From: Polyangia bacterium
GTDB taxonomy: Bacteria; Myxococcota_A; Polyangia; JAAYKL01
DNA: 64,000 bases
Direction of reading: 5' to 3'
Assembly (NCBI GenBank): GCA_050287845.1
Contig: JBNKCR010000129.1
Location: 7,364 to 71,363 of the forward strand
Below the pieces are notes generated by a model that saw only the letters and a program-made list of their open reading frames with translations, was not told the DNA's origin and searched no databases. The position numbers and the translations under genes were made by a program. Of the stretch, positions 3,617-41,077 are shown one piece after another. Each line of letters opens with the position of its first letter. Within the stretch, counting starts at the first letter, position 1.

Positions 3617-3637
3617 TTGGTGGAAACCGGGGAGGGA

Positions 3638-11380: not shown

Positions 11381-11664
11381 TTCTTCTCGTCCAGGTTCAT
11401 GCAATTTTTCGCTCATCGATTCTGAACCCGCTGTCCCGTCGAATCAGGGGACATCAATGGATTTCTCCGCTCCGGCAACGGAACATTTGTTCGATTTTTT
11501 CCTGAGCTGCACCACCGTTGTGACGTCTTTTCCCGGGAGGGCGATGTCTTTTCCGGGGCTTTTCGCTTTTTGGTTTGAACCGGCATGTAAACTGACTATG
11601 ATGACCGCGGTTTCTATGAAATTTACGACAAGTACAACCTGCTATACGATATTGGAATAATTAA

Positions 11665-14154
11665 ATGAAATTTGACCGCTTTCTTCAACGCTGGGCGAGC
11701 ATCGTCTGCCGCTACCCTGTTCGCATCACTGTTTTTGCCCTTGCTTTTGCCCTTGCCGGGGCATTTCTCGCCACTCACATTAAAATAAAGAGTAGTTTCA
11801 CCAATTTGCTTCCGGACAATTCGTCTTCGGTCATCGATTTAAAGGAGATTTCCGCACGCATGGGGGGAATGGGCACCCTGATGATTCAGGTGGAAGGCAA
11901 GAGCCGAAACGACTTGCCGGCCATGGAGAAGTTCGCCGATGATCTGGCGAAGCGAATGGCTGCGTACCCTAAAGATGAAGTGCTTTTTGTGGACTACAAA
12001 GTAGATGCGCCCAAAGGGTTTTTCGAGCGAAATAAATACCTGTATGCCGATAAACAGGAGCTTTCGGATATTTACAAAGAACTCAAGGATTACATCGGCG
12101 ACAAAAAAGCCAAAGCCAATCCGTTCTACATCGATCTCGGAGATAACGACGACGACGAAAAAAAAGAAGCGCTGAATGTGGATGAGTACCGGGAGAAGTA
12201 CAACGAAAAGCTGAGCCGTTTCGATAAATACATTGATGGATATCTTACCAACGAGGCCGGGGATATGCTCATTGTAGTGGTGAAAACCCCCGGCGAAAAT
12301 ACCGGCGTGGATTTTGCGCTTCGCTTTGTGGACAAAGTGGAAAAGGAGATCGCCCAGCTCAATCCCAAAAAGTATTCCAAAAACATGGAGGTGTATCTCA
12401 CCGGAGAGCTCAAAACCCTCCCCGAAGAATACAACGCCCTGCGCAATGACATTCTGTTTGTGTCCAATCTCTGCGTGCTGCTGGTGTTACTGGCCGTATC
12501 CATCTATTACCGGTCGTTCAAGTTGACATTGGTTCTCAGTATTGGCCTGGTGTGTGGGGTGACCACCACCTTCGGTATTGTCTACCTGGCCATCGGATAC
12601 CTCACGGCGGCAACGGCATTTCTTGCGGCGGTGGTTTCCGGGAATGGCATCAATTTTGGCATATACTTCCTGGCGCGGTTCATTGAGGAGCGTGCCAATG
12701 GCAAACCCATGGAAGATACCATCGCCACCACCCTGAAGAGCACGGTGGTGTCGGTGGCCACGGCCGCATTTGCCGCTGGCGCCTCCTATGCATCCCTGAT
12801 GGCCACCCAGTTCAAGGGATTCAACCAGTTCGGGTTCATTGGCGGTATTGGCATGTTGATTTGTCTGGTGTTTGCGCTGACCCTCAACCCCGCATTGCTG
12901 GTTCTGATGGAACGATACTGGCCACTTTCGCAAAAGACGATAAACTCGTTTAAAAACAAAAAGAGTCTGGCGCATGTGGCCGCATGGCTGGTGGAGAACC
13001 ATTCCAGAAAGCTTCTGGTGTTCGGTGCCGTGGCCATTCTGGTATCTACCGTATCCCTGGTGATGTTTCTCCGGGACCCCTTTGAGTACGATTTTCGAAA
13101 TCTTCGCAATCAGTCTTCTCAGAAGTCCGGATCCGGTAAGCGGAGTGGCGAAGCCGAAGCCATTCTGGGAGAGCGGTCCAGTCCACACATCGTACTGGCC
13201 GACAATCTGGAACAGGTGCCTCTCATTAAAAAAGCGCTACGCAAGTATTACAAGGATAATCCTGACGAGCGCTGGCAGGCCATTAAATTCATTAAAACCA
13301 TTTACGACTATCTTCCGGGAACGGTGGCAGAGCAGAAAGAAAAAATCGATATTCTCAATAAAATCCGCGCTCTGGTGCTGAAGAACATCGATTTGCTCGG
13401 TGACGATAAAAAGCGGGACGAAATCATGGAGTTTGTTCCGGAAAAAGAGTTGTCGCCGGTGACGGTGGAAACGGTTCCCGAAGAGCTGGTGCGGCCTTAT
13501 GTGGAGCTGGACGGCACCCGGGGCACGTTGCTGCTGGTGGATATGAACGGCAGTATATGGCGCAAGGAAACCATGGAACGGTTTTCACGGGTCATCAAGC
13601 GGATTCGTCTGGAAGATGGAACAGTTATCCGTTCCAGCGGCAAGGTGGTCATCTTTAACGACATGCTCGATTTTGTGGCCAACGAAGCCCCCTGGGCCAC
13701 CCTGGGGGCGTTCATTGCGGTGCTCATTATTATCGGTATTTCTTTTCGGCGGCTCAAGCATTCGCTCATTGTGGGGGGCGCCATGATGACAGGTGTGATT
13801 CTCATGATGGGCGTTGCAGTGGCGTTTGAACAGAAACTGAACTTCCTTAATTTTATCGCCATTCCCATTCAATTCGGTATCGGGGTGGATTATACGGTGA
13901 ATATCTACGCCCGTTTCCTGCAGGAAGGGCCGGGGTCTATGGGCAGCATCCTGCGAAAAACCGGAGGGGCCGTTCTCATTACCAGCACCACCACCATCAT
14001 CGGGTATGGGTCCATGTGGTTTTCCATCAACGGGGCCATCAACTCCATGGCAAACCTGGCCAACATTGGCGAAGTTACCTGTCTGTTTACAGCCATGTTG
14101 CTGATGCCCGCCTTCGTTGCGGTGTTCGCCCACGGGTTGAAAAAGAAGGCGTAG
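11665..14154 (+). CDS. MMPL-family RND-superfamily exporter (HpnN-like)
   Basis: 829 aa; N-terminal TM helix, large periplasmic loops and two blocks of about six TM helices with sterol-sensing-like GxxxG-rich segments. Confidence 0.8.
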   Translation: MKFDRFLQRWASIVCRYPVRITVFALAFALAGAFLATHIKIKSSFTNLLPDNSSSVIDLKEISARMGGMGTLMIQVEGKSRNDLPAMEKFADDLAKRMAAYPKDEVLFVDYKVDAPKGFFERNKYLYADKQELSDIYKELKDYIGDKKAKANPFYIDLGDNDDDEKKEALNVDEYREKYNEKLSRFDKYIDGYLTNEAGDMLIVVVKTPGENTGVDFALRFVDKVEKEIAQLNPKKYSKNMEVYLTGELKTLPEEYNALRNDILFVSNLCVLLVLLAVSIYYRSFKLTLVLSIGLVCGVTTTFGIVYLAIGYLTAATAFLAAVVSGNGINFGIYFLARFIEERANGKPMEDTIATTLKSTVVSVATAAFAAGASYASLMATQFKGFNQFGFIGGIGMLICLVFALTLNPALLVLMERYWPLSQKTINSFKNKKSLAHVAAWLVENHSRKLLVFGAVAILVSTVSLVMFLRDPFEYDFRNLRNQSSQKSGSGKRSGEAEAILGERSSPHIVLADNLEQVPLIKKALRKYYKDNPDERWQAIKFIKTIYDYLPGTVAEQKEKIDILNKIRALVLKNIDLLGDDKKRDEIMEFVPEKELSPVTVETVPEELVRPYVELDGTRGTLLLVDMNGSIWRKETMERFSRVIKRIRLEDGTVIRSSGKVVIFNDMLDFVANEAPWATLGAFIAVLIIIGISFRRLKHSLIVGGAMMTGVILMMGVAVAFEQKLNFLNFIAIPIQFGIGVDYTVNIYARFLQEGPGSMGSILRKTGGAVLITSTTTIIGYGSMWFSINGAINSMANLANIGEVTCLFTAMLLMPAFVAVFAHGLKKKA

Positions 14155-21594: not shown

Positions 21595-22917
21595 CTAATC
21601 CCAATTGGCCGACTTCGTATCCCATGCGGGATCAGAACAATAGGGGCAACTGTCGCCTACCAGCATTCCTTTTCCGGCGTCGCTTTCATCCCCTTTGAGG
21701 GTCCATTTGAGCCATGCCAGAATAATTTTCGTGAAATCGCCGCTCCCGCCCTGGCCCAGGTCGCCACCGTGTCCGATGTCCTTGCTGAAATACATAATCG
21801 GATTTTCAAGCTTGCTGATGGCATCGTAGTCGCGAAGTCCATTTTCGTAGGCCATATCACTGGGGCCGCCCTGCACAAACAGCACTGGCGTGTGAACGGT
21901 CTGATAAAAGGCATTGTCGGCCGCGAACATGCCGCTGCTGGTCAGCCCCCAGTTTGTCATCCGGGGATCACCTGCGGTGCCTTCGGCCATTAATCCACCG
22001 CAGGAGAAACCGTTGGCTGAGATTTTTGTGGGGTCAAGCTTGTGATAGTAGGGACTGCAGGGTTTGTGATTCTGCTCAATCGCCCAATCAATATATCTGA
22101 TTAGCGGTGCGCCCATTGCAGTCATGTCTCCGGTATCCATGCTGCGATTGCTGGCGTCGCCAGGGGTGCCATCCGCTACAACGAAAAATCCGTAGGAGGC
22201 AATTTCACCCATTGCTGCGGAGTTGGACCCGCCGTTTCGGGAACAAGCACCCTCACCCCATACAAATATGGGGAACCGTTCCTGGGCGTCCAGGTCGGCG
22301 GGACGGTAAATGGTGCCCTCGTTGATGCCGGAATCCGGATTTGTCTCTACCACCACATCATATGGACCGCTTCCGCTGGCGTTTATGCTGCTGACTTTCT
22401 GTGAATCTGTGCAGCTTCCATCAATATCCGGGCCGTCCACGTCACCGTCCGAATCTGTATCGGTGTCGGTGTCTGTATCGGTGTCGGTGTCGGTGTCTGT
22501 GTCTGTGTCGGTATCTGTATCGGTATCAGACTCCGGAATGGTCGCGCCTTCGCAACAGCGCAGCTCTCCTTCGCAGACGCCATTTCTTGCGGTGCCGTCC
22601 CACGAAACGCAGTGGGCCAGACATTCGTATGCGCAGATATCATCTGCATCGGAGTCCGTGTCTGTGTCTGTGTCGGAATCCGTGTCGGTGTCAGTGTCCG
22701 AATCTGTGTCGGTATCGGTATCCGAATCGGTATCAGTATCGGTATCCGAATCTGTGTCGGTATCGGTATCGGTATCCGAATCGGCGTCGCTGTCCGAATC
22801 AGAGTCGTCGGACGAGGAATCGTCTCCGGTGGTGTCCACTCCGCATGTCGGAAATGCGGTACATGCGAAAATCAGCAAAAATGCATACAGTACCATTTTT
22901 ATATTTTTTAACTTCAT
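21595..22917 (-). CDS. secreted alpha/beta-hydrolase esterase with Asp-Thr/Asp-Ser repeat linker
   Basis: Start chosen at MKLKNIKMVLYAFLLIFAC (signal peptide; ORF opens at 22977). Two acidic repeat tracts separated by a six-Cys segment, then a catalytic domain with nucleophile elbow GFSCGG. Confidence 0.75.
   Translation of the reverse strand: MKLKNIKMVLYAFLLIFACTAFPTCGVDTTGDDSSSDDSDSDSDADSDTDTDTDTDSDTDTDTDSDTDTDTDSDTDTDTDSDTDTDTDSDADDICAYECLAHCVSWDGTARNGVCEGELRCCEGATIPESDTDTDTDTDTDTDTDTDTDTDTDTDSDGDVDGPDIDGSCTDSQKVSSINASGSGPYDVVVETNPDSGINEGTIYRPADLDAQERFPIFVWGEGACSRNGGSNSAAMGEIASYGFFVVADGTPGDASNRSMDTGDMTAMGAPLIRYIDWAIEQNHKPCSPYYHKLDPTKISANGFSCGGLMAEGTAGDPRMTNWGLTSSGMFAADNAFYQTVHTPVLFVQGGPSDMAYENGLRDYDAISKLENPIMYFSKDIGHGGDLGQGGSGDFTKIILAWLKWTLKGDESDAGKGMLVGDSCPYCSDPAWDTKSANWD
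22425..22821 (-). repeat. coding hexanucleotide microsatellite (GAY-ACN/AGY)n encoding (D-T/D-S)n
   Basis: Runs of gtatcggtgtcggtgtctgt-type units on the plus strand (about 22440-22520 and 22640-22800), inside esterase codons 53-185. Confidence 0.8.
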
Positions 22918-23317
22918 TATATTGGTTCCTTTCAATTTGTTTTCAGGTCCCGGTTCCATTCGGGGCGAATACTCCATAAAAAATCACAGAATTTTCAGAG
23001 TTCCAGTATCCCGACAGCAAGTGAACAGCGCAGGAATAGTGACATTATTTATGCAAAATGCTGTTTTTCGGAAACGCGACGACTGCGTCGAAAAACATTC
23101 CACGCTGGTTGGTTTCAGTCTGATTGTCGCGTCGGATGCGGATTCGGAGCATATTGACTCCATGCGGATTGTCTAATAAGGAACCCATGAGAAACTGGGC
23201 TTCTGAGCATCTTTTTTTGTAAAGACATCTCAGGGGAAAATGGTAGGATGCCGTTTTTCTGAAAATCAGAAAATCACAATGTATGAACATTCGCAAACTG
23301 GAACATAGGCAACCTGC

Positions 23318-25612
23318 GTGAGTGACGATTCGAAAATTAATGAAGTGATAGCAGAGGAGCAGGCGCTCCTCTCAAAAGTAGTAGTTCATCTGACAACCTC
23401 CTCCAGAAAATCCAGTGTTTACGCCGATTATGATGCGGAATTAATCGAACTTCGGGATGCCCTGGCCGAAGCATTGCCTGAAGATGTACCGTCTCTTGTC
23501 GAGCAGATGACGCGTCTGCAGGCCATTGCGGCACAGCGGGGTCAGGGAGAAGATGTACCGGTGGATCCGGCAAGTCCGTATTTCGGCCACATGCAATTAG
23601 AAGAGGATGGCGAAATTCGGGATGTTCTCCTTGGCAAGCGTACCTACATTTCACCGGGGGATGGCATCCGTATCGTGGATTGGCGAAACGCGCCCGTGAG
23701 CCGTATGTATTACTGCTACGACGAGGGCGATGATTATGAAGAGAGTTTTGGCGGCAAGGTGCGCAGCGGCACTATTTCCACTCGCCGATCGATTACCATC
23801 ACCCGGGGCCAGTTGAGGCGCGTGGATTGTCCCCTGGGGACGTTGGTGAAAAAGGGGGAAGAGTGGATTCGGCTGCGAGAGGCCGGTGCAAAACTTTCAG
23901 GGGGACAGGGCAGTGCCATTCGGGGAACGCGGACGGGGAAATTGGGAGTGGATGCCTATGGCGACTTCAGACAGGACAAGCATTTGCCTGAGATTTCGGC
24001 CCTGCTCGACAAGGATCAGTTTGCACTGATTTCAAGTGATGAGGATGAGCTGCTTGCGGTTCAGGGAAGTGCGGGTTCCGGAAAAACCACAGTGGGACTT
24101 CATCGCATTGCGTATCTGGCATACAGCAGAACAGCTAAAGTGAAGCCATCGAATACTGTCATCATCGTATTGAACAGCGCGCTGGCATCGTACATTGCGG
24201 ATGTGTTGCCGTCTCTTGGGGTTCGCGGGGTCAAGGTCTGGACGTTTGAAAACTGGTGCTCGCGTCTGAGAAAACGGCACATCCCCGGTCTGCCGTCTTT
24301 ATACAGCGAATGGACGCCATCCATTGTGTCCCGTGTGAAAAAGCACCCGGCGTTGCTTCGCATTCTGGATGACTGGGTGGACATGCAGGACGAGACTCTG
24401 ACTGAGAAGATGCTGAAAACGGTCAGCGGTTACAATGATGCTGCCAGGGTGGAAAAAGCATGGAAAACCATTCAACGTCTGCCCATTGAGATTCGGAGGA
24501 GACGGATGCTCAAGTGGCTCGATGGCGAAGCGCGGATTGGGAGAGATACCGGTGATGGTCTTGATATGAAAACCGCGATTGCCCTCGATTCAGCGCTGCA
24601 GCGGATGGGGGAGGTGACAGATGATGTGGTGAATGACTGGGCTGATCTGTTTACGGATAAACGCCAGTTGAAGCATATGTTCGAAACCCACGCCCCGGCG
24701 GAATTTACGGAGTCGGAGCTGGATCGTGTTCATCAATGGTGCACAGATGCATATAAAAAAATATTTGATCAGATGGACGATGATGGCGAAGAGACGATTG
24801 AGGAAGATGACCGCGCAACTATTGACAGGGAAGACGACGCCATTTTGCTCCGACTTTATCAGCTGAAAAAGGGTTGGCTGCGGGAAGGGGGAAAACGTAT
24901 CGAATATGACCACATGATGGTTGATGAAGTGCAGGACTTCAGTGCGCTTGAAGTGCGGGTGTTGATTGGCGCTGTAGGGCAGAACCGTCCGATAACCCTT
25001 GCCGGAGATACAGCGCAGAAAATTGTTCGGGAAGGCGGATTTGATAATTGGGAAGGTTTCATTGACGACCTCGATGTTCAGAATGCCAGACTGGAGCCGC
25101 TTAAGATTGCATATCGGTCCACCATTGAGGTGATGGAAGTGGCGAGAGCCGTGCTCGGACCCCTTGCGGGAGATGAATCGGTGGCCACCCGTCATGGCGC
25201 CCCGGTGGAGGTTCACCAATTTTCAGATCCGGGGCAGGCGGTAGATTTTCTGGGTACCTCGCTTCGGGAACTGTTTCTCAGGGAGCCTCTGGCCAATGTG
25301 GCGATTATTGCCCGGCACGTGAACCAGGCAAAACTGTACTATCAGGGATTGAAGAAGGCGGAAATTCCCAGATTGCGTCTGGTTGTGGAACAGGATTTCT
25401 CTTTTACCCCCGGTATCGAAGTCACTGAAATCCGGCAGGTAAAAGGGCTGGAATTCGATTATGTGGTGATGGTGGAGTGTAATGAGGATTCCTACCCGGT
25501 CACCGACGAAGCCCGGCATCTGTTGCACGTGGGAATGACCCGTGCGGCTCACCAGTTATGGCTGATAACTACCGCGAATCCGTCTCAGCTCATCCCGAAG
25601 AATCTTCTTTGA
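23318..25612 (+). CDS. HelD-like UvrD-family helicase (RNA-polymerase-associated helicase IV type)
   Basis: 764 aa; GTG start; N-terminal region with IVDWRNAPVSRMYY motif; Walker A GSAGSGKTTVGLHRIAYL; C-terminal helicase motifs (LLHVGMTRA). Confidence 0.75.
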   Translation: MSDDSKINEVIAEEQALLSKVVVHLTTSSRKSSVYADYDAELIELRDALAEALPEDVPSLVEQMTRLQAIAAQRGQGEDVPVDPASPYFGHMQLEEDGEIRDVLLGKRTYISPGDGIRIVDWRNAPVSRMYYCYDEGDDYEESFGGKVRSGTISTRRSITITRGQLRRVDCPLGTLVKKGEEWIRLREAGAKLSGGQGSAIRGTRTGKLGVDAYGDFRQDKHLPEISALLDKDQFALISSDEDELLAVQGSAGSGKTTVGLHRIAYLAYSRTAKVKPSNTVIIVLNSALASYIADVLPSLGVRGVKVWTFENWCSRLRKRHIPGLPSLYSEWTPSIVSRVKKHPALLRILDDWVDMQDETLTEKMLKTVSGYNDAARVEKAWKTIQRLPIEIRRRRMLKWLDGEARIGRDTGDGLDMKTAIALDSALQRMGEVTDDVVNDWADLFTDKRQLKHMFETHAPAEFTESELDRVHQWCTDAYKKIFDQMDDDGEETIEEDDRATIDREDDAILLRLYQLKKGWLREGGKRIEYDHMMVDEVQDFSALEVRVLIGAVGQNRPITLAGDTAQKIVREGGFDNWEGFIDDLDVQNARLEPLKIAYRSTIEVMEVARAVLGPLAGDESVATRHGAPVEVHQFSDPGQAVDFLGTSLRELFLREPLANVAIIARHVNQAKLYYQGLKKAEIPRLRLVVEQDFSFTPGIEVTEIRQVKGLEFDYVVMVECNEDSYPVTDEARHLLHVGMTRAAHQLWLITTANPSQLIPKNLL

Positions 25613-25805
25613 AACAATTTGTTGATTTTTTTTGAAACAGTTTGTTACACCGGTGGGCAGATGAGTTATATCCGTAACTGAAATGAATCACTGTGACGCT
25701 GGGGGTACGGTGTGATGGCAGCGGCTTCCTGATTTGGCGATGTATATGCACGCGAGATAACCGAATCGTCGCATGTATTGTGCACAGGGAAGGATAATAA
25801 CCGCC

Positions 25806-27194
25806 ATGCATATTCCTGAAGAACTTTTTGAACTGGTGTTTCAGAGCATCAGCGAAGGGGTTTTCACTGTCGATGAAAATTTTCGAATTACCGCATTCAA
25901 CAGCGCTGCGGAGAAAATTACCGGAATTCCGGCGGAAATGGCCGTGGGACGAAAATGTCACGAAGTGTTTCGGGCCAATATCTGTCAGAACCGCTGTGCC
26001 CTGAAACATACCCTTCAAACGGGAAATCCCCGGTCGGATGTGCGGGTGGATGTACTGGATGCCAATATGGACCCCATTCCCATTGAAGTGTCCACTGCCG
26101 TTCTTCGCGATACGGACGGACGGATGATAGGCGGCGTGGAAATCTTTCGGGATATCAGTGAAATTGAACTGCTGCGGGGCGAGCTGGGGCAGCGGCACGA
26201 GTTTTCCCGCATCATTGGTGCCAGCCCTGCCATTCAGTCTGTCCTGTCGGTGGTGCCACAGGTGGCGCAGTCTGATGCGGCCGTGCTCATCCAGGGGCAG
26301 AGCGGCACCGGGAAGGAACTGGTTGCCGGTGCCATCCACGAACTGTCACGCCGCCGTGACAAGGCGCTTGTCAGAGTCAATTGTGCGGCATTGCCGGATA
26401 CGCTTCTGGAATCAGAACTTTTCGGATATATGAAAGGCGCATTTACCGGGGCGGTGGCGGACAAACCGGGCCGGTTTGCGCAGGCCGATGGGGGGACGCT
26501 GTTTCTGGACGAAATTGGAGACATATCACCGGCGTTTCAGGTAAAGCTGCTCCGCGTGCTCGAAGAAGGGGAGTTTCAACCTCTGGGCAGCACGCGAACC
26601 ATCACCGTTGATGTGCGATTGATTTGCGCCACAAATCTGGATTTGGCGCAGATGGTCCGCGATGGTACTTTCCGGGAAGATCTGTATTACCGGATTCGGG
26701 TGGTACCGTTGCATATGCCTTCCCTGGCAGAGCGCCGACAGGACATCCCCATGCTCATCGACCATTTCGTGAAACTGATTTCGGCCAGAATGGGTAGACG
26801 GCCGCCAGGGTTCAGTCCCCGTACCATGCGACTTTTATATGAATATCATTATCCTGGAAATGTACGTGAACTGCGAAACATTCTGGAGCGCGTTCTGGTG
26901 CTCTGCAACCAGGACGTGGTGGAACCACCGTGTTTGCCCCCGGAAATATACATGCCCCGTCATTTCGAATCCGCTTCGGTTGTCCCTGGGGAAGAGGCGG
27001 AACCGGGTAGATTGGCCGCCAATAACGATTCCCTTCGGAGAAGTGTTTCGCCGCCTTACCTGGCCGGAGATGAAGCGGCGACCTTGAAGCAGGCGCTGGC
27101 AGCTGCTTCCTGGAATCGGAATCTGGCGGCAAAACGCCTTGGAATCAGTCGTACTACACTCTGGCGCCGTATGAGAAAATACGGCCTCGAATAA
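25806..27194 (+). CDS. sigma-54-dependent transcriptional activator with N-terminal PAS domain
   Basis: PAS-like N-terminus; AAA+ sigma-54 interaction domain with Walker [15 protein letters not shown] motif, arginine finger region; C-terminal Fis-type HTH ([24 protein letters not shown]). ORF opens at 25773. Confidence 0.85.
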
Positions 27195-27282
27195 ATCTCC
27201 GTTCGAAGTGCAGATGTTATAGATGTTTTTTTGAACAGTCGTTTTGTTGATTTGCCCTTCCAGATAGGGCAACCATTTATGG

Positions 27283-27603
27283 ATGTCTTTTCGGGAAAAA
27301 TGGCGGCATGCATTTGCGCTGGAACCGGCTTTGCCGCCGGAGCCGGAGACACTGCCGGGTGTGCTGGAAAAATTTGCGGCACAGGTGGTGGAACGTCGGA
27401 TGGAGACACCGGCAATTCTGTTTCTGGAGATGGCGCGCCCCCTCAATTTCATTGGCAGCCAGTTGATATTTGCGGTCACTCCGGTAGCGGGGCTGTTTAA
27501 AACGGACCACGAGCTCAACGAAGTTGCCCGTGCGCTGGAACACCGGGGTGCCATTGAGAGAATGGTTCAGCGCATCGAGCAACTTTCCCTGGAACGGAAA
27601 TGA
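27283..27603 (+). CDS. hypothetical small protein (first gene of a three-gene operon)
   Basis: 106-aa ORF whose stop overlaps the start of the next gene (ATGA). Confidence 0.5.
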   Translation: MSFREKWRHAFALEPALPPEPETLPGVLEKFAAQVVERRMETPAILFLEMARPLNFIGSQLIFAVTPVAGLFKTDHELNEVARALEHRGAIERMVQRIEQLSLERK

Positions 27604-29378
27604 CTGACTTTGAAGGTGCCAATGAAGGTCGGGTCATCGTTATCACCGATTGCGGGTCCACTACCACCAAAGCCATTCTGATTGAGAAAACAAATGGCGT
27701 GTATCGGCAAGTCTGTCGCGGAGAATCTCCCACGACAGTGGAAGCACCGGTGGAAGACGTGACTGTAGGAGTAAAGCGCGCATTGACGGACTTGTCGGCA
27801 ATCAGTGGCAGACAGCTGATCGACGAAAAAAATGACATTATCCGACCGGCCCGGGGCAGGGTTGGATGCGACTGGTATATTTCCACATCGTCTGCCGGTG
27901 GTGGATTGCAGATGGCGGTTCTGGGACTGGTGAAAAACATCAGTGCATCGTCGGCGCTGAAAGCGGCCCTGGGGGCTGGTGCAATTGTGACCGAATGCAT
28001 CGCCAGTGATGATGAAAAGGATACCCTCGCTCAGGTGGAACGGCTGCGCAGGCTACGGCCGGATATGGTGCTGCTGGCCGGAGGCACCGATGGCGGGCAA
28101 ACGACAGGCGTGGTGGAATTGGCGGAACTGCTGGCCCTTGCGGAACCGCAACCCCGATTCGGGGACAGATTTCAGTTGCCGGTGGTGTATGCGGGAAATC
28201 GGGATGTCCGTGATGAGGTAGGTCGGATTCTATCGAAAACCGCAAAAGTGATTCATACAGACAATGTGCGTCCGACCATTGAAGCAGAGACACTGACATT
28301 TGCACGGGATCGCATTCATTCGCTTTTTCTGGAGCATGTGATGCAACAGGCGCCCGGCTTTTCAAAACTTCTCGCCCTGTGTGATACCGATGTGATGCCA
28401 ACACCGTCCGCGGTTGGAAAAATGCTGCAGCTTCTTGGCGAAAAGCAGGGCATCAATGCATTGTGCGTGGATATTGGCGGCGCGACCACCGACGTATTCT
28501 CTGTAATGAATGGCCAATTCAATCGGACGGTCAGCGCCAACCTGGGGATGAGTTACTCCGCTGCGTTTGTGCTGAAGGAATGTGGTCTCGAAAATATCAG
28601 TCGATGGTTGCCGGTTGAAATGGATGAGGGCGAATTGCTCAATCAGGTAATGAACAAGACCGTTCGCCCCACCACGATTCCCGATACGGAAGAAGCGCTG
28701 ATGGTGGAGCAGGCTCTGGCCCGGGAAGCATTGAGAATATCATTGGAACAGCACACGGCGTTTGCCCACGAATTGAAAGGTGCGGTGACAGAACGCAACA
28801 TTGATGGTGGATTTTCTTCGGGTCAGGTGGCGAAGTGGCGCATGGCCAATGTGAATCTGCTGATTGGTTCCGGCGGTGTGCTTTCCCATGCGCCCTGTGA
28901 AATGCAGACCGTGGCCATGCTGGTCGATGCCTTTTTGCCGGAGGGCGTAACAGTGATTGCCAGGGACTCGGTATTCATGATGCCCCACCTCGGGGTGTTG
29001 AGTGGCATGGATGAAAATGCCGCGCTGGAAGTGTTTTTCAACGATTGTGTTATTCCGCTGGTAACGTCCGTGGTGCCGAAGGGACGATGGAAAGCGGGAC
29101 AGTCAGTTGTATCCTATCGGTTTTCGTCTGAATCCGGTCAGCATTGGTCGGGGACGCTTCGCTGGGGCGAGCTCAAAATGTGCCGTGCGCCGGATGGCGG
29201 CATGTTGACCCTGACACCGGCGCGGCATGTGGATTCGGGATTCGGTCCGGGGAAACCGGGGACGATTTCAGTTAAGCCCTCGCGCCTGGGAATATTGTTT
29301 GATGGAAGATCCCGCCCTCTGGTCAACCGGGATGCCAACCTGTGGCAATCACTTTTTAAGGAGGGGCCCCATGAGTAA
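27600..29378 (+). CDS. ASKHA-fold ATPase, glutamate-mutase-L (GlmL/MutL)-like
   Basis: 592 aa; two nucleotide-binding-like motifs in the arrangement seen in GlmL: ITDCGSTTTKAIL near the N-terminus and VDIGGATTDVFSV mid-protein. Confidence 0.6.
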   Translation: MTDFEGANEGRVIVITDCGSTTTKAILIEKTNGVYRQVCRGESPTTVEAPVEDVTVGVKRALTDLSAISGRQLIDEKNDIIRPARGRVGCDWYISTSSAGGGLQMAVLGLVKNISASSALKAALGAGAIVTECIASDDEKDTLAQVERLRRLRPDMVLLAGGTDGGQTTGVVELAELLALAEPQPRFGDRFQLPVVYAGNRDVRDEVGRILSKTAKVIHTDNVRPTIEAETLTFARDRIHSLFLEHVMQQAPGFSKLLALCDTDVMPTPSAVGKMLQLLGEKQGINALCVDIGGATTDVFSVMNGQFNRTVSANLGMSYSAAFVLKECGLENISRWLPVEMDEGELLNQVMNKTVRPTTIPDTEEALMVEQALAREALRISLEQHTAFAHELKGAVTERNIDGGFSSGQVAKWRMANVNLLIGSGGVLSHAPCEMQTVAMLVDAFLPEGVTVIARDSVFMMPHLGVLSGMDENAALEVFFNDCVIPLVTSVVPKGRWKAGQSVVSYRFSSESGQHWSGTLRWGELKMCRAPDGGMLTLTPARHVDSGFGPGKPGTISVKPSRLGILFDGRSRPLVNRDANLWQSLFKEGPHE

Positions 29379-30432
29379 TCCGGCATCGCCTGTGCTGACT
29401 GTCTGCGGCAATATGAGTCTTGCACGAACGCGTAGGATACCGCCCGGGGCAAGGATCACCGTGGAACGGCATAGCGGAGTATGCGCGACGGATGTGGTGG
29501 CAACAGCGGACGTTTCGGGGCAGATGGTGTCGGTGGATGCCGCGGCGTTATTGGGCGTGGCCAAGGGGAGAATCCTCGATTGTCTGGCAGTTGGTATTGG
29601 CGACAAAGTAACTGAAGGTCAGGTGATTGGACGACGGGATGCGCTTATGGGAATATTTAAAACCGTACTTGTATCGCCTCTGAATGGCACCGTGGAAAGT
29701 GTATCCCGGGTGTCTGGACATCTGATGATACGCGAAACATCGCATCCGGTAAATGTGCGCGCGTATATCGCTGGACGTGTTGAAAAGATAGACCAGAAGA
29801 ACGGAGTGACGGTTTCAACCACCGGTGCACTGATTCAGGGGGTCGTCGGTGTAGGCGGCGAAGTGACTGGCACACTCTGTTCGACTCGGGACGAAAATCT
29901 GGCCGGTCGAATTGTGTGTGCCTTTGAATCGATAGATGCGCAGGGACTTCGTCATTTTCGCGATGCAGGTGCGCTTGGTGTGATTGCACCGGGGATTGAT
30001 GGAAAAGCGTTGATGAATTTTTGTGGTGCGCATTTGAATCCAGCGGCGACCGGGGATGAAAACGTGGGAATTACCATGGTGTTCACAGAAGGGTTCGGTG
30101 CGCTGCCAATGGCGGCGAAAACCCGAAGTATACTGATGGCGCTGATGAACCGGGAAGTATCGATGAGCGGCGTCACTCAGGTGCGGGCGGGAGTGATTCG
30201 ACCGGAGCTGATTGGTCCGCCAGTGACGGTGGCTGATGGTGAAAATTCTCATTCTATCCCCGGGCGTCTCGTTAAAATCCTCCGGGGACGCCACATGGGG
30301 CGCGAAGCCCTTATCATGGATGAACCGGCAACCCCCCAACTTCTGCCATCCGGCATTTCTGCGCTCATCTACAGGCTGAAACTGACCGATAGCGGAGACG
30401 TCATCACTGTTCCAAGGGTAAATGTGGAGTAG
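29371..30432 (+). CDS. hypothetical protein, translationally coupled to the GlmL-like gene
   Basis: Start at MSNPASPVLT overlaps the upstream stop by 8 nt; 353 aa; Gly/Val-rich with a barrel-sandwich-hybrid-like segment (GQVIGRRDALMGIFKTVLVSPLNGTV). ORF opens at 29227. Confidence 0.55.
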   Translation: MSNPASPVLTVCGNMSLARTRRIPPGARITVERHSGVCATDVVATADVSGQMVSVDAAALLGVAKGRILDCLAVGIGDKVTEGQVIGRRDALMGIFKTVLVSPLNGTVESVSRVSGHLMIRETSHPVNVRAYIAGRVEKIDQKNGVTVSTTGALIQGVVGVGGEVTGTLCSTRDENLAGRIVCAFESIDAQGLRHFRDAGALGVIAPGIDGKALMNFCGAHLNPAATGDENVGITMVFTEGFGALPMAAKTRSILMALMNREVSMSGVTQVRAGVIRPELIGPPVTVADGENSHSIPGRLVKILRGRHMGREALIMDEPATPQLLPSGISALIYRLKLTDSGDVITVPRVNVE

Positions 30433-30523
30433 ACACACACATAGATGCGTCATTGAATTTGCTCTATACTCTACGTTCGGGAATTTGCATCGGCACAGAC
30501 AGAGGCTTCGGTCTCAGATTCCT

Positions 30524-31441
30524 TCATGTGGTTTTTGCTTTTGCGTATTCAATTTCCGGATAGATTTTTTTAATGCACGCTGGACAGATGCTGTGACTGA
30601 AAATCACGTCAGCGTGCCGGGACAGATAAATCTCCATCTGGTTCCAGTATCCTTTGTCGTCCCGAATCTGCTTGCACGACGAACAGATTGGTAACAGTCC
30701 CTGTAACGTTTGGCTTTTTTCGATGGAATCCAGCATCTGGGCGGACACAACGTATCGCTTGCGACTGACAAACTCAGTGTAATATGCGAGAAATGTGAAC
30801 GCGAGCATGAAACTGATAAAAAAGAAGTTGTAAATAAGAAATATAAACGCATTTGTTGGCACGATGACCCCAATCAAGAGCTCAAAAATGACCATGCTGC
30901 CCATGAGGGCGAAAATGGAGTATGTGAAGCCGATACCCACAGTACAGAATATGCCGCAGAAAGAAAGCACAACGCCCATGATATACGGAGAGAATACGCC
31001 GGGGGGACTGAGCGCTGTCTGGATGGTGCAGAATGTACCCACCAGAATAATAAAAAGCGTTGAACTCCACACCAGATAGGGTCTGATGGGATGCCACCAC
31101 GAGAAAGCCAGCATTGCACCTGCCAGACTCAACAGAATGATTCTTGAGGTGATGACCAGAGCGGCCTGCGGTCCAAAGAAGGGCTTGTCCAGGATGCTGA
31201 AAATACTGCCGAACAGGATCACCATGATCCACGCGACACGGACAAAATTTATCGTTGAATCAACCGTTGTCTGACGGTATTTTTTTTCGATTTGATTATC
31301 CAGAAAGTGTAACAGAAATTTGTGGAGTCGATACTTTTCGGCGTTCATATTCACATCTTCAATTGCAGTGCCTGATTGGTTCGAAACAGCCGAATCCGGG
31401 TGCGGAATAACCAGGGCGTTGTCAGTCAGCTTGAGCAGCAA
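30524..31441 (-). CDS. polytopic membrane protein with C-terminal CxxC-N(27)-CxxC tail
   Basis: About six hydrophobic helices followed by the cytoplasmic tail LPICSSCKQIRDDKGYWNQMEIYLSRHADVIFSHSICPACIKKIY. Start may be the internal MNAEKYRL (31348). Confidence 0.6.
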   Translation of the reverse strand: MLLKLTDNALVIPHPDSAVSNQSGTAIEDVNMNAEKYRLHKFLLHFLDNQIEKKYRQTTVDSTINFVRVAWIMVILFGSIFSILDKPFFGPQAALVITSRIILLSLAGAMLAFSWWHPIRPYLVWSSTLFIILVGTFCTIQTALSPPGVFSPYIMGVVLSFCGIFCTVGIGFTYSIFALMGSMVIFELLIGVIVPTNAFIFLIYNFFFISFMLAFTFLAYYTEFVSRKRYVVSAQMLDSIEKSQTLQGLLPICSSCKQIRDDKGYWNQMEIYLSRHADVIFSHSICPACIKKIYPEIEYAKAKTT

Positions 31442-31585
31442 CTATGTCCAGTGATCAAATGTGTTTCAAATTGCGGCTTTTGCAAATGAAAAGGAGCGGG
31501 TGCATGCATTTCTGGAGAAAAGGTGGCAAATGGACTGCAGGGTTATTGGTTTACTTGTCACCCGCGATGAACGGCGGCACCCCAT

Positions 31586-34500
31586 TCAGGGAGTATGCGG
31601 TTTGAACCCGCCTCCACCGGGGGTTTCGATGGTGAGGATGTCCCCGGGAAATACATCTACCGTATCACAGCCCCCCAGTGAAAGTTGCGTACCGTCTGCC
31701 CGTTGCAGGCTGTTTTTTCCCGGAGCGCCATTTTGACCGCCAAAGAGCCCTCTGGGGGCGTGGACGCGGTGACTCGATACAATGCTGACCGTCAGAGGCT
31801 CTTTGAAGGCAATGCGACGGATAGCACCGTTTCCGCCATTGAAGCGCCCCGGACCGCCGCTGCCATGCCGCACGGAAAACTGTTCCAGTTTCACTGGAAA
31901 TCGGGATTCCAGCACCTCGGGGTCCGTTATTCTGGAGTTGGTCATGTGGCATTGAATCGCGTCGGTGCCGTGAAACGATTGGCCGGCCCCACTGCCGCCA
32001 CAGATGGTTTCGTAGTATTGATACTGATAATTGCCGAAAGTGAGGTTGTTCATAGTCCCCTGGGAACCAGCCAGTTTGCCAAGGGCCTGCAACAGAACAT
32101 CCACGATGTGCTGGGAGGTTTCCACGTTGCCTGCCACCACGGCCATGGGATAGCCGGGGTGGAGTATGCATCCTTCCGGTACAATGATTTCAAGGGGAAT
32201 GAGACAGCCGCTGTTCAACGGAATGTCTCTTGTGAGTGTGCGAAAGACATAGAGTACCGCGGCATGGGTGATGGACAGGGGGGCATTGAAATTGTGTCCG
32301 GGGTTTTGCGGTGAGGTCCCGGTAAAATCAATTCGGGCGGTTCGTGCCGGCTGGTCGATATGAACACTCACACAAATCCGGTCTCCTGTATCCATTTCAA
32401 TTTCGGCAGCGCCGTTCTGCAGGGTAGTGAGCACCTCCCGCACCGATGCGGCGGCGTTGTTCTGGACGTGGGTCATGTAGTTGGTGACCACGACCGTTCC
32501 GAACTGGCTCACCAGATGACAGAGCTCCGCATCGCCTTTGGCATTGGCGGCCACCTGCGCACTGATGTCGGCGATATTGCACTGCACATCTCTGGCCGGA
32601 TGCGCAGATGCCAGAAACCGCTGTTGCAGTTCAGCTTCCTGGAATTCTCCGCGGTGGGCTATCCTTATTCCGTCGAACAGGATGCCCTCGTCATCAATGT
32701 GCACACTGTCGGGGGGGATCGAACCGGGGGTGGTGCCGCCGACATCGGCGTGATGTCCCCGGCTGGCAACAAAAAAGAGAGGCGTTTTTGCATTGGCCGC
32801 AAACACCGGCGTCACCACCGTGAGGTCAGGCAGGTGGGTACCGCCGTGATAGGGGGAATTGAGCAGGAACACATCGCCTTTTTCCATGGGGGAGTATTTC
32901 TCAATGATGGCCCTGACACTGGGGGACATGGAACCAAGATGAACGGGAATATGTGGGGCATTGGCCACCAGATTTCCCTGTGCGTCAAACACGGCGCAGG
33001 AAAAGTCCAGCCGTTCCCGGATATTGACTGACGCTGCCGTATTCTGGAGGGTGTATCCCATCTGTTCGGCCACGTTCATAAAACGGTTGTTGAACAGTTC
33101 CAGAAACACGGGGTCCACATCAGTGCCGACGGCAACCGTTTTGGGTAATGGCTTATGTCGGGTAAGGAAAAAGTGTCCGGCCGTGTGCAGCGTGGCCTGC
33201 CAACCCGGTTCAACCACGATGGTGGAATTGGGCTCGATGATAATACACGGACCGGTCAGTACCGCGCCCGGATGCAGGTCGTGGCGAAGGAAGATACTCG
33301 CATCCAACCATTTGCCGCCGGTAAAGAAACGGGTGTGCTTTCCCTCTTCAAGGATATATGAATCAGTAAGTGTTTCCGAAGCGTCTCGGGGCGTCATGCC
33401 TCCCTGACGTACTTCACACACGGCCTTGGCCACTTCGATGGGTTTTCGATTGAAAACAAATCCGAACCGGTTGCGGTGAATTTCTTCAAACTCTTTACGC
33501 ATCTGAGTGATGGCGCCGAACGGGACTGAAAGGGGGCTGTCTGTCCCTGAATATCGAAGCAGCAACCGCTGATACACCACCGGCGGTCGAAAGTGGGAGG
33601 AAAGCTCGGTGGCACACGCCCGGTTCAGTTTTTCAAATATGGCATGGAGCCCGGGGATATTTTCTTCCACCAGTTCGAGAAGTACCGAACGTTCCTTTAC
33701 CACCACGTTGTCGGCCAGTCCCATCCCCAGGGCGGAGAGCACGCCCGCTTCGGGATGGATGAACACGCGGGTCATTCCCAGCACGTCAGCTGTGCGGCAG
33801 GCATGCTGCCCCCCGGCGCCGCCGAAGCAGCACAGGGTGTATTCCCGAACGTTGTATCCCCGTTGCACTGAAATTCGCTTGATGGCCTGCGCCATATTTT
33901 CCACGGCGATGTCCAGAAAGCCTTCCGCGATGTCGGCGACGCTTCTGGATGTTCCGAAGGACCGGTTGATTTCGTCGGTCAAGGTCTCAAGCCGCAACAC
34001 CGCAGCCGCCCTATCGAGAGACTCGTCGCCGGATGGACCGAATACCTTTGGAAAATACTCGGGCAATATTTTTTTCAGCACCACGTTGCAGTCTGTCACC
34101 GTGGGCGGTCCGCCGCGGCGGTACGATGCCGGACCGGGACTGGCACCGGCGGATTCCGGTCCCACCTGGCAGCGGCCATCACTGAATTTGAGAATGGATC
34201 CGCCGCCCGCCGCCACGGTGTGAATGTTGAGCATGGGGCACTGCAGGCGGACATCGGCGATTTCGGATTCGTAGTTGAGTTCGTACTCACCGTTAAAGTG
34301 GGCGACGTCCGTGGAGGTGCCTCCCATATCAAAGGTAATCACGTTGTGATATCCGGCGGCCCGGCAAGTGGTGACTGCGCCAACGATGCCTCCGGCCGGC
34401 CCCGAAAGAATGCTGTCTTTGCCCTGAAAATGGGCGGCATCTATGAGGCCGCCATGGGATTGCATGAACATAAGCGACGGCATACCGCCATCCGGCGTTG

Positions 34501-35224
34501 CAGCGTTTGTATGCAGGCTTGATTGTACCTGCGAAACATAGCGTTTGAGGAGCGGTGACAGATATGCATCCACCACGGTGGTATCACCGCGACTGATAGC
34601 CTTGATGGATGGACTGATGCGGTGCGATACCGATATGTGATGAAAACCCATTTCAACCGCAATATCTGCAATCCGGTTTTCATGGGTCCCGTTGCGGTAT
34701 CCGTGCAACAGCACAATCGCCACGGTCCGAACGCCGGAAGACAGGATACTTTTCAGAACTCTGCGGGTATGGGGTTCATCCAATGGTGTCAATATAACGC
34801 CATTTGCATCAATCCGCTCCCGAATTTCATGGACACTTTCGTACAGGGCCAGCGGTCTCTGAATGTGCAGTCTGAATAGATCGCGGCGATGCTGATAGCC
34901 GATGTGAAGCAAATCTCCGAAGCCTTCGGTCACCAGAAGTGCCACCCGTTCCCCCCTGCGTTCCAGCAGCGCATTGGTACCTACCGTGGTACCCATCTTC
35001 ACCACTTCGATTTTGTCGGTGGTCCATGGGGAAGGATCTGCATCGGCGAGAAGTTTGCGGATGCCAAAAATGGCAGCATCCTTGTACTGCTCCGGATTTT
35101 CAGACAAGTATTTGGCGGAATGAATCTGCCCATCGGGCGAGCGGCCGACCACGTCGGTGAAGGTGCCCCCCCGATCTATCCAGAATTGCCATCGGCGGGT
35201 TTCGGAATGTTTTTTTCTGTTCAC
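31586..35224 (-). CDS. 5-oxoprolinase / hydantoinase family protein (fused HyuA-HyuB type)
   Basis: 1212 aa; N-terminal hydantoinase-A ASKHA motif [13 protein letters not shown] and a C-terminal hydantoinase-B-like half, in one polypeptide. Confidence 0.85.
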
Positions 35225-35367
35225 TGGGGTTTTCCTTCAACATCGGTCAGGCTCATGTCGCTGCATTTTGTTGCTGCTCAGCAACAGTTTTGGCGGGAAG
35301 ATAACACATTCGACAAATGGATGTCGTGCCAAATCAATGGGTGTAACGCGCCAATAGAGTGTCATCA

Positions 35368-38989: not shown

Positions 38990-41077
38990 ATGACACAGAA
39001 CAGAACGCAGACTGAAGAAAAGCACTATCTCGATACCATACAGGGCAAGCTGAAAACGGCCTATGCATCGCTGGACCATCGGGTGAACCGGTACGCAAAG
39101 GAAATCCAGGAGCAGAAAACATATCTGTGGGAGCAGCGCAGCGACATGGATCATGCGGAAAAGGTCTCTTCGAGGCAGGCAGCGCTGCAGATGGTTCGGA
39201 GCGGAGAAATGGCGCAGAAAAGCCAGTCCCGGATAGCCCGGCTGATTCAGTCGCCCTGGTTCGGTCGAATCGATTTCAGACGCACGCCATCCGCCGATTC
39301 GTCGCGAATGATATATGTGGGAGTTCACTCCTTCTCCGACGATGACACTGGCAATATTTTCATCCACGACTGGCGCGCCCCCGTGTCCACCATGTTTTAC
39401 GACTTTGAACTCGGTCCGGCCCGATACGATTCTCCGGACGGCCTGATTGACGGAGAGCTCACCCTGAAACGTCAGTTTCGAATTCGCAACGGCGAAATGG
39501 AGTTCATGCTCGAAAGCGGGCTGAACATCATGGATGACGTTCTCCAGGAGGAACTCAGTCGCACATCGGATGAGCGGATGAAAAACATTGTGGCCACCAT
39601 TCAGCGGGATCAGAATGCCATCATTCGAAACGAAGACGCCGACGTGCTGATTATTCAGGGGGTTGCCGGGTCGGGGAAAACATCCATTGCCCTTCACCGG
39701 ATAGCGTTTCTTCTTTATCGTCACCGGGAGACATTATCATCGAAAGATATCCTCATTATTTCACCCAATCGGGTGTTCGGGGATTTTATCGCCAACGTGC
39801 TGCCGGAATTGGGCGAAGAACAGATCGCGGAGCTGGGTATGGACGACCTCGCCGACGAGCTGCTGGAGCGCAAAATAAAGTTTCAGACTTTTTTTGAAGA
39901 AACCCTGGCCCTGATGGAAAAAGGCGATGATGCGCTGCGGCAACGCATTGCGGCGAAATCAACGGTGGACTTCATCCGAAAGCTCGACGCGTATATCGCC
40001 CATGTGGAATCCACCCGTTTCGCGGCCACGGATGTATGGATTGGCAACTATGCGGTGCCCGCCTGGGTTGTCGAGCAGGCTTTCAGCAAGCGGCCGGATC
40101 TTCCGCTGACAAAGCGAATCGGATGGGCGGCAGAAGTGGTGGTGCACGAAGTCTGGGTGAAGTACCGGTATGAAGTCCCGGCGAAGGAGCGGGCGCAGCT
40201 CAAACGGGATATTGGCAAAATGGTTAAAAAATCGACGTTGCGGGCCCTGTACAGGGAATTCTTCGCCTGGCAGGGGAGGCCGGAGCTGTTCAAAGCGGGG
40301 CCTCGGGGGAAGTTGGAACACGCGGACGTGTATCCGTTGATATATCTGAAAATAAAAGTGGAAGGCATTTCTTTGCCCTATCCGCAAATCAGACATCTGC
40401 TGGTGGATGAAATGCAGGATTATACACCGGTGCAGTATGCGGTACTCGGCAAACTGTTTTCGTGTGCCAAAACGATTCTCGGCGATTCGTCCCAATCTGT
40501 GAATCCCTACAGCTCGTCGAAATCAGAAACCATCGGCGAGGTGTTTGCGTCTGCTGAATGTGTGCAGCTCCAGAAGAGTTATCGGTCCAGCTATGAAATT
40601 ACCCGGTTCGCCGGCGCCATGTTTCCGGACTTGAATATCGAAGCGATTGAGCGCCACGGTGAATCGCCGAATGTGCGGCCGTGCAAATCCCGGAAAGAGG
40701 AGATGGACACCATACAGACAGAGCTCCGTCACTTTAAACAGGGGAGCGCACGAACTATTGGCGTCATCTGTAAAAGCCAGAAACAGGCGCAGAAACTGTA
40801 TAGCGAAATTGTAACGAATTTTCCCGAGGCGCAATTGCTCACGGAAAAAAGCAATGCATTCAAAAAAGGTATCATCGTTGCGGCGGTGCACATGTCAAAG
40901 GGACTCGAATTCGACGAGGTGCTGCTGCCCAATGCATCTGCCGAAAATTATGGCAATCGGATGGATCGTCATCTGCTGTACGTGGCCACGACGCGGGCCA
41001 TGCACCGACTGACCCTGACGTACTCCGGATTGCCATCTCCCTTTATTCCCGAACCACCGCTGAACGAATCAGAGTAG
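38990..41077 (+). CDS. HelD-like UvrD-family helicase, second paralog
   Basis: 695 aa; IHDWRAPVSTMFY motif; Walker A GVAGSGKTSIALHRIAFL; C-terminal LLYVATTRA. Confidence 0.75.
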   Translation: MTQNRTQTEEKHYLDTIQGKLKTAYASLDHRVNRYAKEIQEQKTYLWEQRSDMDHAEKVSSRQAALQMVRSGEMAQKSQSRIARLIQSPWFGRIDFRRTPSADSSRMIYVGVHSFSDDDTGNIFIHDWRAPVSTMFYDFELGPARYDSPDGLIDGELTLKRQFRIRNGEMEFMLESGLNIMDDVLQEELSRTSDERMKNIVATIQRDQNAIIRNEDADVLIIQGVAGSGKTSIALHRIAFLLYRHRETLSSKDILIISPNRVFGDFIANVLPELGEEQIAELGMDDLADELLERKIKFQTFFEETLALMEKGDDALRQRIAAKSTVDFIRKLDAYIAHVESTRFAATDVWIGNYAVPAWVVEQAFSKRPDLPLTKRIGWAAEVVVHEVWVKYRYEVPAKERAQLKRDIGKMVKKSTLRALYREFFAWQGRPELFKAGPRGKLEHADVYPLIYLKIKVEGISLPYPQIRHLLVDEMQDYTPVQYAVLGKLFSCAKTILGDSSQSVNPYSSSKSETIGEVFASAECVQLQKSYRSSYEITRFAGAMFPDLNIEAIERHGESPNVRPCKSRKEEMDTIQTELRHFKQGSARTIGVICKSQKQAQKLYSEIVTNFPEAQLLTEKSNAFKKGIIVAAVHMSKGLEFDEVLLPNASAENYGNRMDRHLLYVATTRAMHRLTLTYSGLPSPFIPEPPLNESE

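Follow-up and report, generated by a model that had tools for sequence, protein, structure and literature searches.

We identified a compact, widely conserved three-gene module in a 64,000-nucleotide stretch of DNA from a Polyangia bacterium (contig JBNKCR010000129.1, positions 7,364 to 71,363; hereafter the window). Its genes, orfA, orfB and orfC, lie head to tail on the forward strand. We propose that this triad encodes a tightly packed cytoplasmic module built around orfB, an ASKHA ATPase paralogous to GlmL, and that the subfamily to which this ATPase belongs is uncharacterised, highly conserved and has nothing to do with B12 mutases. We place the probability of this explanation as a whole at roughly 55%. 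An original prediction from the sequence alone had described the locus as a sigma-54 activator followed by an orphan GlmL/MutL-like ATPase operon with no mutase. The ATPase part of that description stands, and the sigma-54 part of its title should be dropped.

A six-frame listing of open reading frames (ORFs) places orfA at 27283..27603 (106 amino acids, aa), orfB at 27600..29378 (592 aa) and orfC at 29371..30432 (353 aa), with overlaps of 4 nt between orfA and orfB and 8 nt between orfB and orfC. Upstream on the same strand lies a gene for a predicted OrpR-type sigma-54 enhancer-binding protein (25773..27194; 473 aa for the longest ORF, with an alternative start at 25806 corresponding to Met12). 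It is separated from orfA by an 88-bp gap (27195..27282). The layout originally described, a PAS-containing activator and then three overlapping same-strand genes, is therefore borne out in coordinates and lengths. Ratios of nonsynonymous to synonymous substitution (dN/dS) against a 91%-identical relative are 0.145 for orfA, 0.141 for orfB and 0.278 for orfC, indicating that all three are real genes under purifying selection.

The assignment of orfB to the GlmL/MutL family of ASKHA ATPases passes a profile check: the Pfam MutL model PF13941 matches residues 13-482 at an E-value of 1.6e-120 (403 bits against a cut-off of 27), and the motifs DCGSTTTK (residues 17-24) and DIGGATTD (residues 291-298) quoted originally are both present. 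By BLASTP, residues 13-428 align with GlmL of Peptoclostridium acidaminophilum at 32% identity (E 2e-43), and every family motif of that GlmL recurs in orfB. These matches mark orfB as a genuine GlmL paralogue within a distinct, very large subfamily. It scores 234.2 bits against a cut-off of 475 for NCBIfam GlmL (NF040745), 218.3 against 600 for Or-4 (NF040744) and 175.9 against 204 for the GlmL-family model TIGR01319. A planctomycete orthologue reaches 237 bits with NF040745, again below its cut-off of 475. GlmLs annotated on plasmids and chromids are 24–32% identical to orfB. The P. acidaminophilum protein has 461 aa and is encoded in a glmS-glmL-glmE-mal locus; in orfB the MutL domain ends at residue 482 and an extra subfamily-specific C-terminal region of ~110 aa follows.

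The nucleotide-binding elements of orfB, namely phosphate-1 (D17-K24), phosphate-2 (D291-D298) and adenosine (S424-G426), are invariant in 21 homologues. An AlphaFold2 model (predicted local distance difference test 78.7, predicted TM-score 0.76) confirms the predicted ASKHA fold and resolves it into an ASKHA core, a Rossmann-like insert at ~92-220 and an extra, well-predicted C-terminal beta domain at ~484-570. Foldseek matches this model to hydantoinase-A-type acetophenone/acetone carboxylase subunits, N-methylhydantoinase, Hsp70 nucleotide-binding domains, PilM, FtsA and DdrA. Neither single-sequence nor profile searches returned a relative of orfB in the PDB, our literature search found nothing relevant on its subfamily or on DUF6754 (see below), and orfB belongs to no characterised family with known partners that correspond to the genes around it. 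The Pfam family of this ATPase is thus known, but its subfamily is distinct and mis-annotated, and is best seen as a variant of the GlmL-type ASKHA accessory ATPases.

The subfamily is broad. All 8000 scored candidates of an orfB protein search had E<=1e-5, that is, there are at least 8000 homologues, and when one genome per species was scanned, at least 596 species had an orfB relative, in genera that include Gimesia, Schlesneria, Singulisphaera and Phycisphaera. The best 120 homologues are 53–93% identical to orfB and ~590–640 aa long, many of them labelled 'glutamate mutase L' or 'methylaspartate mutase'. The best 80 loci (50–68% identity) come from Planctomycetota, including anammox Brocadia, Scalindua and Anammoxibacter; from Latescibacterota, Zixibacteria, Ignavibacteria and Acidobacteriota; from Nitrospirota (including Nitrospira), Nitrospinae and Methylomirabilis; and from Elusimicrobia, Armatimonadota, Binatia and 'Deltaproteobacteria' metagenome-assembled genomes. 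At least ten phyla share the strongly conserved triad, and the identity of their orfB is 50% or higher.

To define the partners of orfB, we surveyed 82 unique loci by calling ORFs, detecting orfA, orfB and orfC with hidden Markov models and clustering the remaining neighbours; the denominators 76 and 58 below count loci with room for the gene or genes in question. orfA lies upstream of orfB on the same strand in 63/76 loci (adjacent in 57), and orfC lies downstream in 68/76 (adjacent, within 650 nt, in 55). The 4-nt overlap between orfA and orfB is common in other loci too. Association of the three genes beyond this genome, on which the original prediction depended, thus holds. No mutase-like family recurs among the neighbours in the 82 loci, and the 20 largest other ORFs of the window carry no B12-binding or mutase Pfam domain, in agreement with the original remark that a mutase is absent. 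The accompanying generalisation that GlmL-type ATPases normally travel with mutases is true of GlmL proper only, and fails for this very large, mutase-less subfamily of ~600-aa proteins.

The only other recurrent families are four membrane-protein genes directly 3' of orfC, here called D-G. Of the 58 loci, 40 have D and 34 have D, E, F and G together. D (~426 aa) comprises a signal peptide, an Fn3 domain, a transmembrane segment, DUF6754 and a second transmembrane segment; E (~224 aa) has ~5 transmembrane segments; F (~286 aa) has transmembrane segments at both ends; and G (~250–300 aa) is polytopic. For E, F, G and the DUF6754 part of D we found no relatives in Pfam (bar the DUF itself), NCBIfam, PADLOC or the PDB, where profile searches with all four proteins matched only the Fn3 domain of D. 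The triad as first described was therefore a conserved set but not the complete unit, the four genes that follow it in most genomes having been overlooked. A role in anti-phage defence was considered and rejected, as A-G gave 0 PADLOC matches.

Several lineages vary this plan. A bPH-like gene upstream and, in Nitrospira, a Memo-like gene after G are lineage-specific extras. In several Ignavibacteria and Zixibacteria loci a ~284-aa gene stands between orfB and orfC, and orfA is often undetectable. Two tandem D-E-F-G copies accompany a single orfB/orfC in some Ignavibacteriales and Zixibacteria genomes, as in L076 (269-6215, minus strand) and L048. In several Latescibacterota, OppA/OppB/OppC-like genes (SBP_bac_5 plus two permeases) lie between orfB and orfC (L085, 9834-14108; also L051, L073 and L086). 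No ABC ATPase gene was seen in the L085 stretch. The Opp-like insertion might be a hint that the cluster has to do with peptides or solutes.

orfA matches no Pfam or NCBIfam family and is predicted to be soluble, with no transmembrane segment. Its N-terminus is conserved, with Met1, AFA at residues 10-12 (the AF within HAFAL) and Pro15, and this conservation among homologues argues that the annotated start is correct. Further conserved motifs are R..M..PA..FLE..RPLNF.GSQ in the centre, followed by LE.R.

orfC, rich in Val (11.9%) and Gly (11.6%) as originally noted, appears to have three domains: a lipoyl-like barrel-sandwich hybrid at the N-terminus, a swivelling beta/beta/alpha domain in the middle and a KOW/SH3-like domain at the C-terminus. 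The flanking domains match KOW and the barrel-sandwich hybrids of NqrA, RnfC and HlyD. Sequence signals are weak: the only Pfam matches of orfC, to KOW and the RnfC_N barrel-sandwich, are weak, NCBIfam gives no relative, the Biotin_lipoyl and RnfC_N matches of orfC and its homologues are likewise weak, and a profile search of the PDB returned KOW/biotinyl fragments only. The NqrA/RnfC-type barrels led us to consider an Rnf/Nqr-like complex, which we rejected, as Pfam recognises no Rnf, Nqr or FMN_bind domain in D-G.

Conservation in orfC is strongest in a nearly invariant loop of the swivelling domain, T239-E-G-F-G243, and next in R272-A-G-x-x-R-P-E279. We take this loop to sit at the position of the Enzyme I phospho-histidine, a placement read from the strand-loop-helix pattern of the model and the Enzyme I motif, not from a superposition. 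Among 41 homologues, no His, Cys, Lys or Asp anywhere in orfC is conserved at >=70%. Because His, Cys and Lys are not conserved, orfC is neither a phospho-His carrier nor a biotin/lipoyl carrier, and we rejected a phospho-relay or carrier role.

The orfC family is large in its own right (a profile finds 3951 representatives at E<=1e-3, of which 1381 reach E<=1e-30), and it links orfC directly to orfB. Two of the profile matches are proteins of ~1000 aa. In one, P0194 (995 aa), a full-length orfB (residues 11-577, 51% identity) is fused to orfC (622-993), and the locus reads A-[BC]-D-E-F. By Rosetta-stone logic, such fusion suggests that orfB and orfC act together. Other orfC variants, among them P0210, P0226, P0229, P0254, P0256 and similar proteins, are ~450–475 aa long with a ~80-aa N-terminal extension, and match the profile in two stretches. 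P0256 has the clearest extra match, a weak PTS_EIIA_1 hit in the extension, with a weak Peptidase_M23 hit just after it.

How the module might work is a guess by analogy, and a doubtful one: it could be an ATP-driven, chaperone-like device. DdrA and EutA are ASKHA reactivases that couple nucleotide-driven closure to the movement of a partner. orfB, predicted to bind and hydrolyse ATP, might likewise use nucleotide-dependent domain closure to move a partner, with no phosphorylation of a small molecule, as in the reactivases DdrA, EutA and GlmL. The partner would be orfC, whose swivel domain would be the part that is moved, and orfA might serve as a small adaptor or as a regulator. In genomes with D-G, these proteins could be the client or anchor on which orfA-orfB-orfC docks, and the module would then drive assembly, gating or ligand exchange in a membrane complex.

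We extend this to a broader proposal that is possible but falls somewhat short of even odds: A-B-C may be the cytoplasmic motor of an unrecognised seven-gene ATP-driven membrane machine, together with the DUF6754 protein and three novel membrane proteins. If true, Planctomycetota, Nitrospirota, Acidobacteriota, FCB-group phyla and others would share this machine as a near-housekeeping function, and the ASKHA 'reactivase' mechanism would have a new role beyond B12 enzymes, for instance in assembly, gating or ligand exchange of an envelope complex.

Several observations weigh against the proposed module or parts of it. The mechanism rests on analogy between folds. TM-scores of orfB against PDB structures are low (<0.4), so the Foldseek matches speak for a generic ASKHA fold, and the top ones are hydantoinase-A-type subunits, which are enzymes rather than chaperones. 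The fusion proteins are two metagenome gene calls, with one contig inspected. Neither the 64-kb window nor the loci of its nearest relatives contain D-G homologues, and any coupling to a membrane complex may therefore not extend to this organism. The window, its close relatives L001 and L006, and the more distant L005, L010 and L014 carry A-B-C only at the locus; in a rough neighbour-joining tree rooted on true GlmL, which we treat with caution, these loci form the basal grade. Finally, a scan of 25500-31600 for sigma-70 promoters and terminators returned nothing in the gap and no promoter for the triad, which leaves a small probability of control by the upstream activator through a non-canonical site.

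Four alternatives compete with the proposed module. The one that survives best, though still unlikely, makes orfB (with orfC) an ATP-dependent small-molecule enzyme of the hydantoinase/oxoprolinase/acetone-carboxylase type, perhaps working with a neighbouring HyuA-HyuB fusion. That neighbour, a hydantoinase/oxoprolinase fusion of 1212 aa (31586-35224, minus strand), is the second ASKHA-containing protein here and lies 1.1 kb downstream of the triad, as a hydantoinase/oxoprolinase gene also does in L006. The top Foldseek matches of orfB, to acetophenone/acetone carboxylase subunits and N-methylhydantoinase, point the same way, as does a Pfam Hydantoinase_A match at 4.5e-06; that match, however, spans only 37 residues around the phosphate-2 loop. 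Moreover, the fusion gene is on the opposite strand, and orfC lacks the conserved His, Cys, Lys or Asp of a catalytic type. Apart from the window, only the 91%-identical relative has this hydantoinase neighbour; L001, L003, L005 and the other loci lack it. With synteny limited to the closest relative, we rejected a link between the triad and this neighbour.

An improbable second alternative casts orfB as a membrane-tethered, PilM/FtsA-type actin-like scaffold that organises D-G and binds the N-terminal peptide of orfA as PilM binds PilN. PilM and FtsA are indeed among the structural matches, membrane-protein genes are conserved downstream, and the N-terminal motif of orfA is short and highly conserved. 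By sequence, however, orfB groups with the GlmL/hydantoinase branch, from which no polymer-forming members are known. orfA lacks a transmembrane segment, and the window has no D-G to organise.

The third alternative takes the activator and the operon as the functional unit of the original prediction: the PAS sigma-54 activator would sense a signal and switch on orfA-orfB-orfC from a sigma-54 promoter. We regard this as very unlikely, and the evidence comes from the activator itself, from related loci and from the sequence between the two. The activator is intact. It has Pfam PAS, Sigma54_activat, AAA_lid_14 and HTH_8 domains and a GAFTGA motif, and it lies on the same strand as the triad, 88 bp away. 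Its PAS domain contains C62-x8-C71-x3-C75 and E64 (C51, C60 and C64 when numbered from the 25806 start). In Desulfovibrio vulgaris, OrpR is a sigma-54 activator with a PAS-[4Fe-4S] domain, three conserved cysteines (C52, C61, C65) and Asp or Glu at 54 (PMC8359166). The Cys signature and the PAS, AAA+ and HTH domains identify the window protein as a probable OrpR-type redox enhancer-binding protein. The known targets of OrpR in D. vulgaris are the orp operons only (PMC8359166), which speaks against control of the triad.

Related loci show where this activator belongs. The closest relatives, L006 and L007, have orfB proteins 93% identical to that of the window, and the activators of L006 and the window are 96% identical. 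The gene order in L006 and L007 is a UvrD-like helicase, the activator, three Nitro_FeMo-Co (NifX-like) genes and a small MinD/CbiA-like gene, a PAS sensor (791 aa) on the opposite strand, and then the triad. In L006 a perfect sigma-54 site, TGGCACATGCCTTGC, lies 26 nt upstream of the first NifX-like gene. The NifX-like and MinD-like genes match the C-terminal part of MrpORP, which makes them orp-like. The L006 orthologue thus precedes a perfect promoter and orp-like genes, and the triad is 5 kb away with an opposite-strand gene in between.

Alignment by blastn with the 92%-identical L006 contig shows three collinear blocks. Positions 350-4492, 9620-12844 and 13533-18251 of L006 correspond to 23063-27206, 27219-30443 and 30523-35242 of the window. 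Between the first two blocks, 12 nt in the window (27207..27218) stand in for 5.1 kb in L006 (4481-9619 region), a clean indel. This L006 block carries the sigma-54 promoter, the three NifX-like genes, the MinD-like gene and the opposite-strand 791-aa PAS sensor, and we found no orp-like genes elsewhere in the window. A second indel follows orfC, where 79 nt of the window (30444-30522) correspond to ~0.69 kb of L006 (12845-13532) with a 137-aa ORF. L001, whose orfB is 68% identical, goes directly from UvrD to the triad with no activator, and neither L001 nor any other inspected locus has an activator gene next to the triad. The UvrD-like gene upstream of the triad region (23318-25612, plus strand) is the only neighbour common to the window, L006 and L001.

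The sequence between activator and triad is consistent with this. As the original prediction had reported, the gap (given there as 90 bp) has no canonical TGGCAC-N5-TTGC promoter; our sigma-54 scan of 27195-27282 found no such -24/-12 site. The native leader of the triad, 27219..27282 on the plus strand, is shared with L006, whose activator is distant, and partly with L001, and it belongs to the triad. It contains an inverted repeat, TTGCCCT (27252-27258) and AGGGCAA (27266-27272) with an N7 spacer, 10 nt upstream of the orfA start; L006 has the identical repeat, and L001 retains part of it. This repeat could serve the leader as an operator or form an RNA hairpin. The only nearby site with <=1 mismatch is the sigma-54-like TGGAACCGGCTTTGC at 27320-27334 (plus strand), and there are ~7 such sites in 128 kb counting both strands. 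It lies inside codons 13-17 of orfA, where the flanking residues (AFA, P15) are conserved; it is kept in L006 as coding sequence only and is absent from L001. We judge it to be a chance match.

Together, the activator-triad adjacency is very probably the result of the indel, and a regulatory link is unlikely. The adjacency misleads because the 5.1-kb block with the promoter and orp-like targets, present in L006, is absent here. The activator most likely belongs to a different operon that is missing at this position.

The least probable alternative gives orfB the classical GlmL/Or-4 role, that of a reactivase or chaperone acting in trans on an adenosylcobalamin-dependent mutase whose gene lies elsewhere in the genome. 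It draws on the clear homology of orfB to GlmL, for which a chaperone function in reactivating glutamate mutase is described (PMC4682846). Against it are scores below all the NCBIfam GlmL, Or-4 and glmL_fam cut-offs, the extra C-terminal domain, the lack of any mutase among the scanned window ORFs or recurrent neighbours, and a divergent pattern of conservation: real GlmLs, 24–32% identical to orfB, sit between glmS and glmE, and the orfB subfamily, with A, C and D-G as its conserved partners, stays at 50% identity or more across phyla.

The rest of the window holds various other genes. Among its 20 largest other ORFs, Pfam recognises GH63-like, MMPL, CcmF, pyruvate:ferredoxin oxidoreductase, citrate synthase, ketol-acid reductoisomerase and other proteins, along with two UvrD-like helicases, the one already mentioned and another at 38990-41077 (plus strand). 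A nonribosomal peptide synthetase-like gene (55860-61775, plus strand; 1971 aa) encodes two AMP-binding regions and condensation, PP-binding and thioesterase domains, and is preceded by an ABC exporter gene (54121-55851). A predicted secreted protein of 460 aa (21595-22977, minus strand) has long Thr-Asp/Ser-Asp repeat tracts (DTDTDTDSDTDTDTD) flanking a Cys-rich segment, and it also has a C-terminal globular domain; it has no Pfam match at 1e-5.

The proposed module has practical consequences. The database label 'glutamate mutase L' or 'methylaspartate mutase' on thousands of proteins of the orfB subfamily is almost certainly wrong, and it implies glutamate fermentation or B12 chemistry where the locus encodes none. 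Apart from the paralogy of orfB to GlmL, no protein of the cluster has a characterised relative. Its carriers are environmentally important and include anammox bacteria, Nitrospira, Methylomirabilis, Planctomycetes and Acidobacteria. Such conservation is usually the mark of a core cellular function, and it makes the cluster a well-defined target for planctomycete genetics and structural work. The locus is also a clean example of how activator-operon adjacency created by a recent indel can mislead.

Comparison with known systems sets the parts of this locus in context. The upstream regulator has the same PAS/sigma-54 AAA+/HTH architecture as OrpR (DVU2106), with Cys-x8-Cys-x3-Cys and Glu at +2. 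Unlike OrpR, it has no orp-like genes and no promoter of theirs beside it, and the published OrpR palindrome was not found. PilM-PilN and FtsA-FtsN share with the cluster an ASKHA fold and, in most genomes, bitopic and polytopic membrane proteins near the triad. In contrast to them, orfB has no specific sequence relationship to PilM or FtsA, orfA is predicted to be soluble, and the cluster has no pilus, secretion or division genes.

orfC resembles two further groups in fold. Its central domain fits the beta/beta/alpha swivelling fold of phosphoenolpyruvate (PEP) utilisers such as Enzyme I, pyruvate phosphate dikinase, PEP synthase and rifampin phosphotransferase. It differs from these in having TEGFG in place of a loop with a conserved His, in lacking a Pfam PEP-utilizers match and in having a nucleotide-binding partner that is ASKHA, not ATP-grasp. 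Unlike biotinyl and lipoyl carriers, it has no conserved Lys at the hairpin tip.

The ATPase is closest to GlmL/MutL (NF040745, PF13941). Both have an ASKHA core with a Rossmann-like insert, and both contain D.GST.TK, SSA.GGL.M, GGTDGG, MPTP.AV and D.GGATTDV.S. orfB is longer (592 aa vs 461 aa), adds a C-terminal beta domain and scores 234 bits against 475. It was never beside glmS or glmE in the examined loci, its partners being orfA, orfC and usually D-G. Or-4 of the D-ornithine aminomutase cluster (NF040744) has an ASKHA domain homologous to orfB (E 1.4e-64), but orfB scores 218 bits against 600 and its locus lacks aminomutase and ornithine-degradation genes.

A further parallel is DdrA-DdrB (PDB 2d0o). 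DdrA has no sequence similarity to orfB, and the triad has no identified DdrB-like subunit or B12 enzyme partner (no dehydratase or mutase genes among the scanned window ORFs). The swivel domain of DdrA is inserted, whereas that of the triad is on a separate chain, or C-terminal in the fusions, and orfC carries additional barrel-sandwich and KOW-like domains. Nevertheless, orfB and orfC together appear to reproduce on two chains the two domain types of DdrA, an ASKHA core and a swivelling domain.

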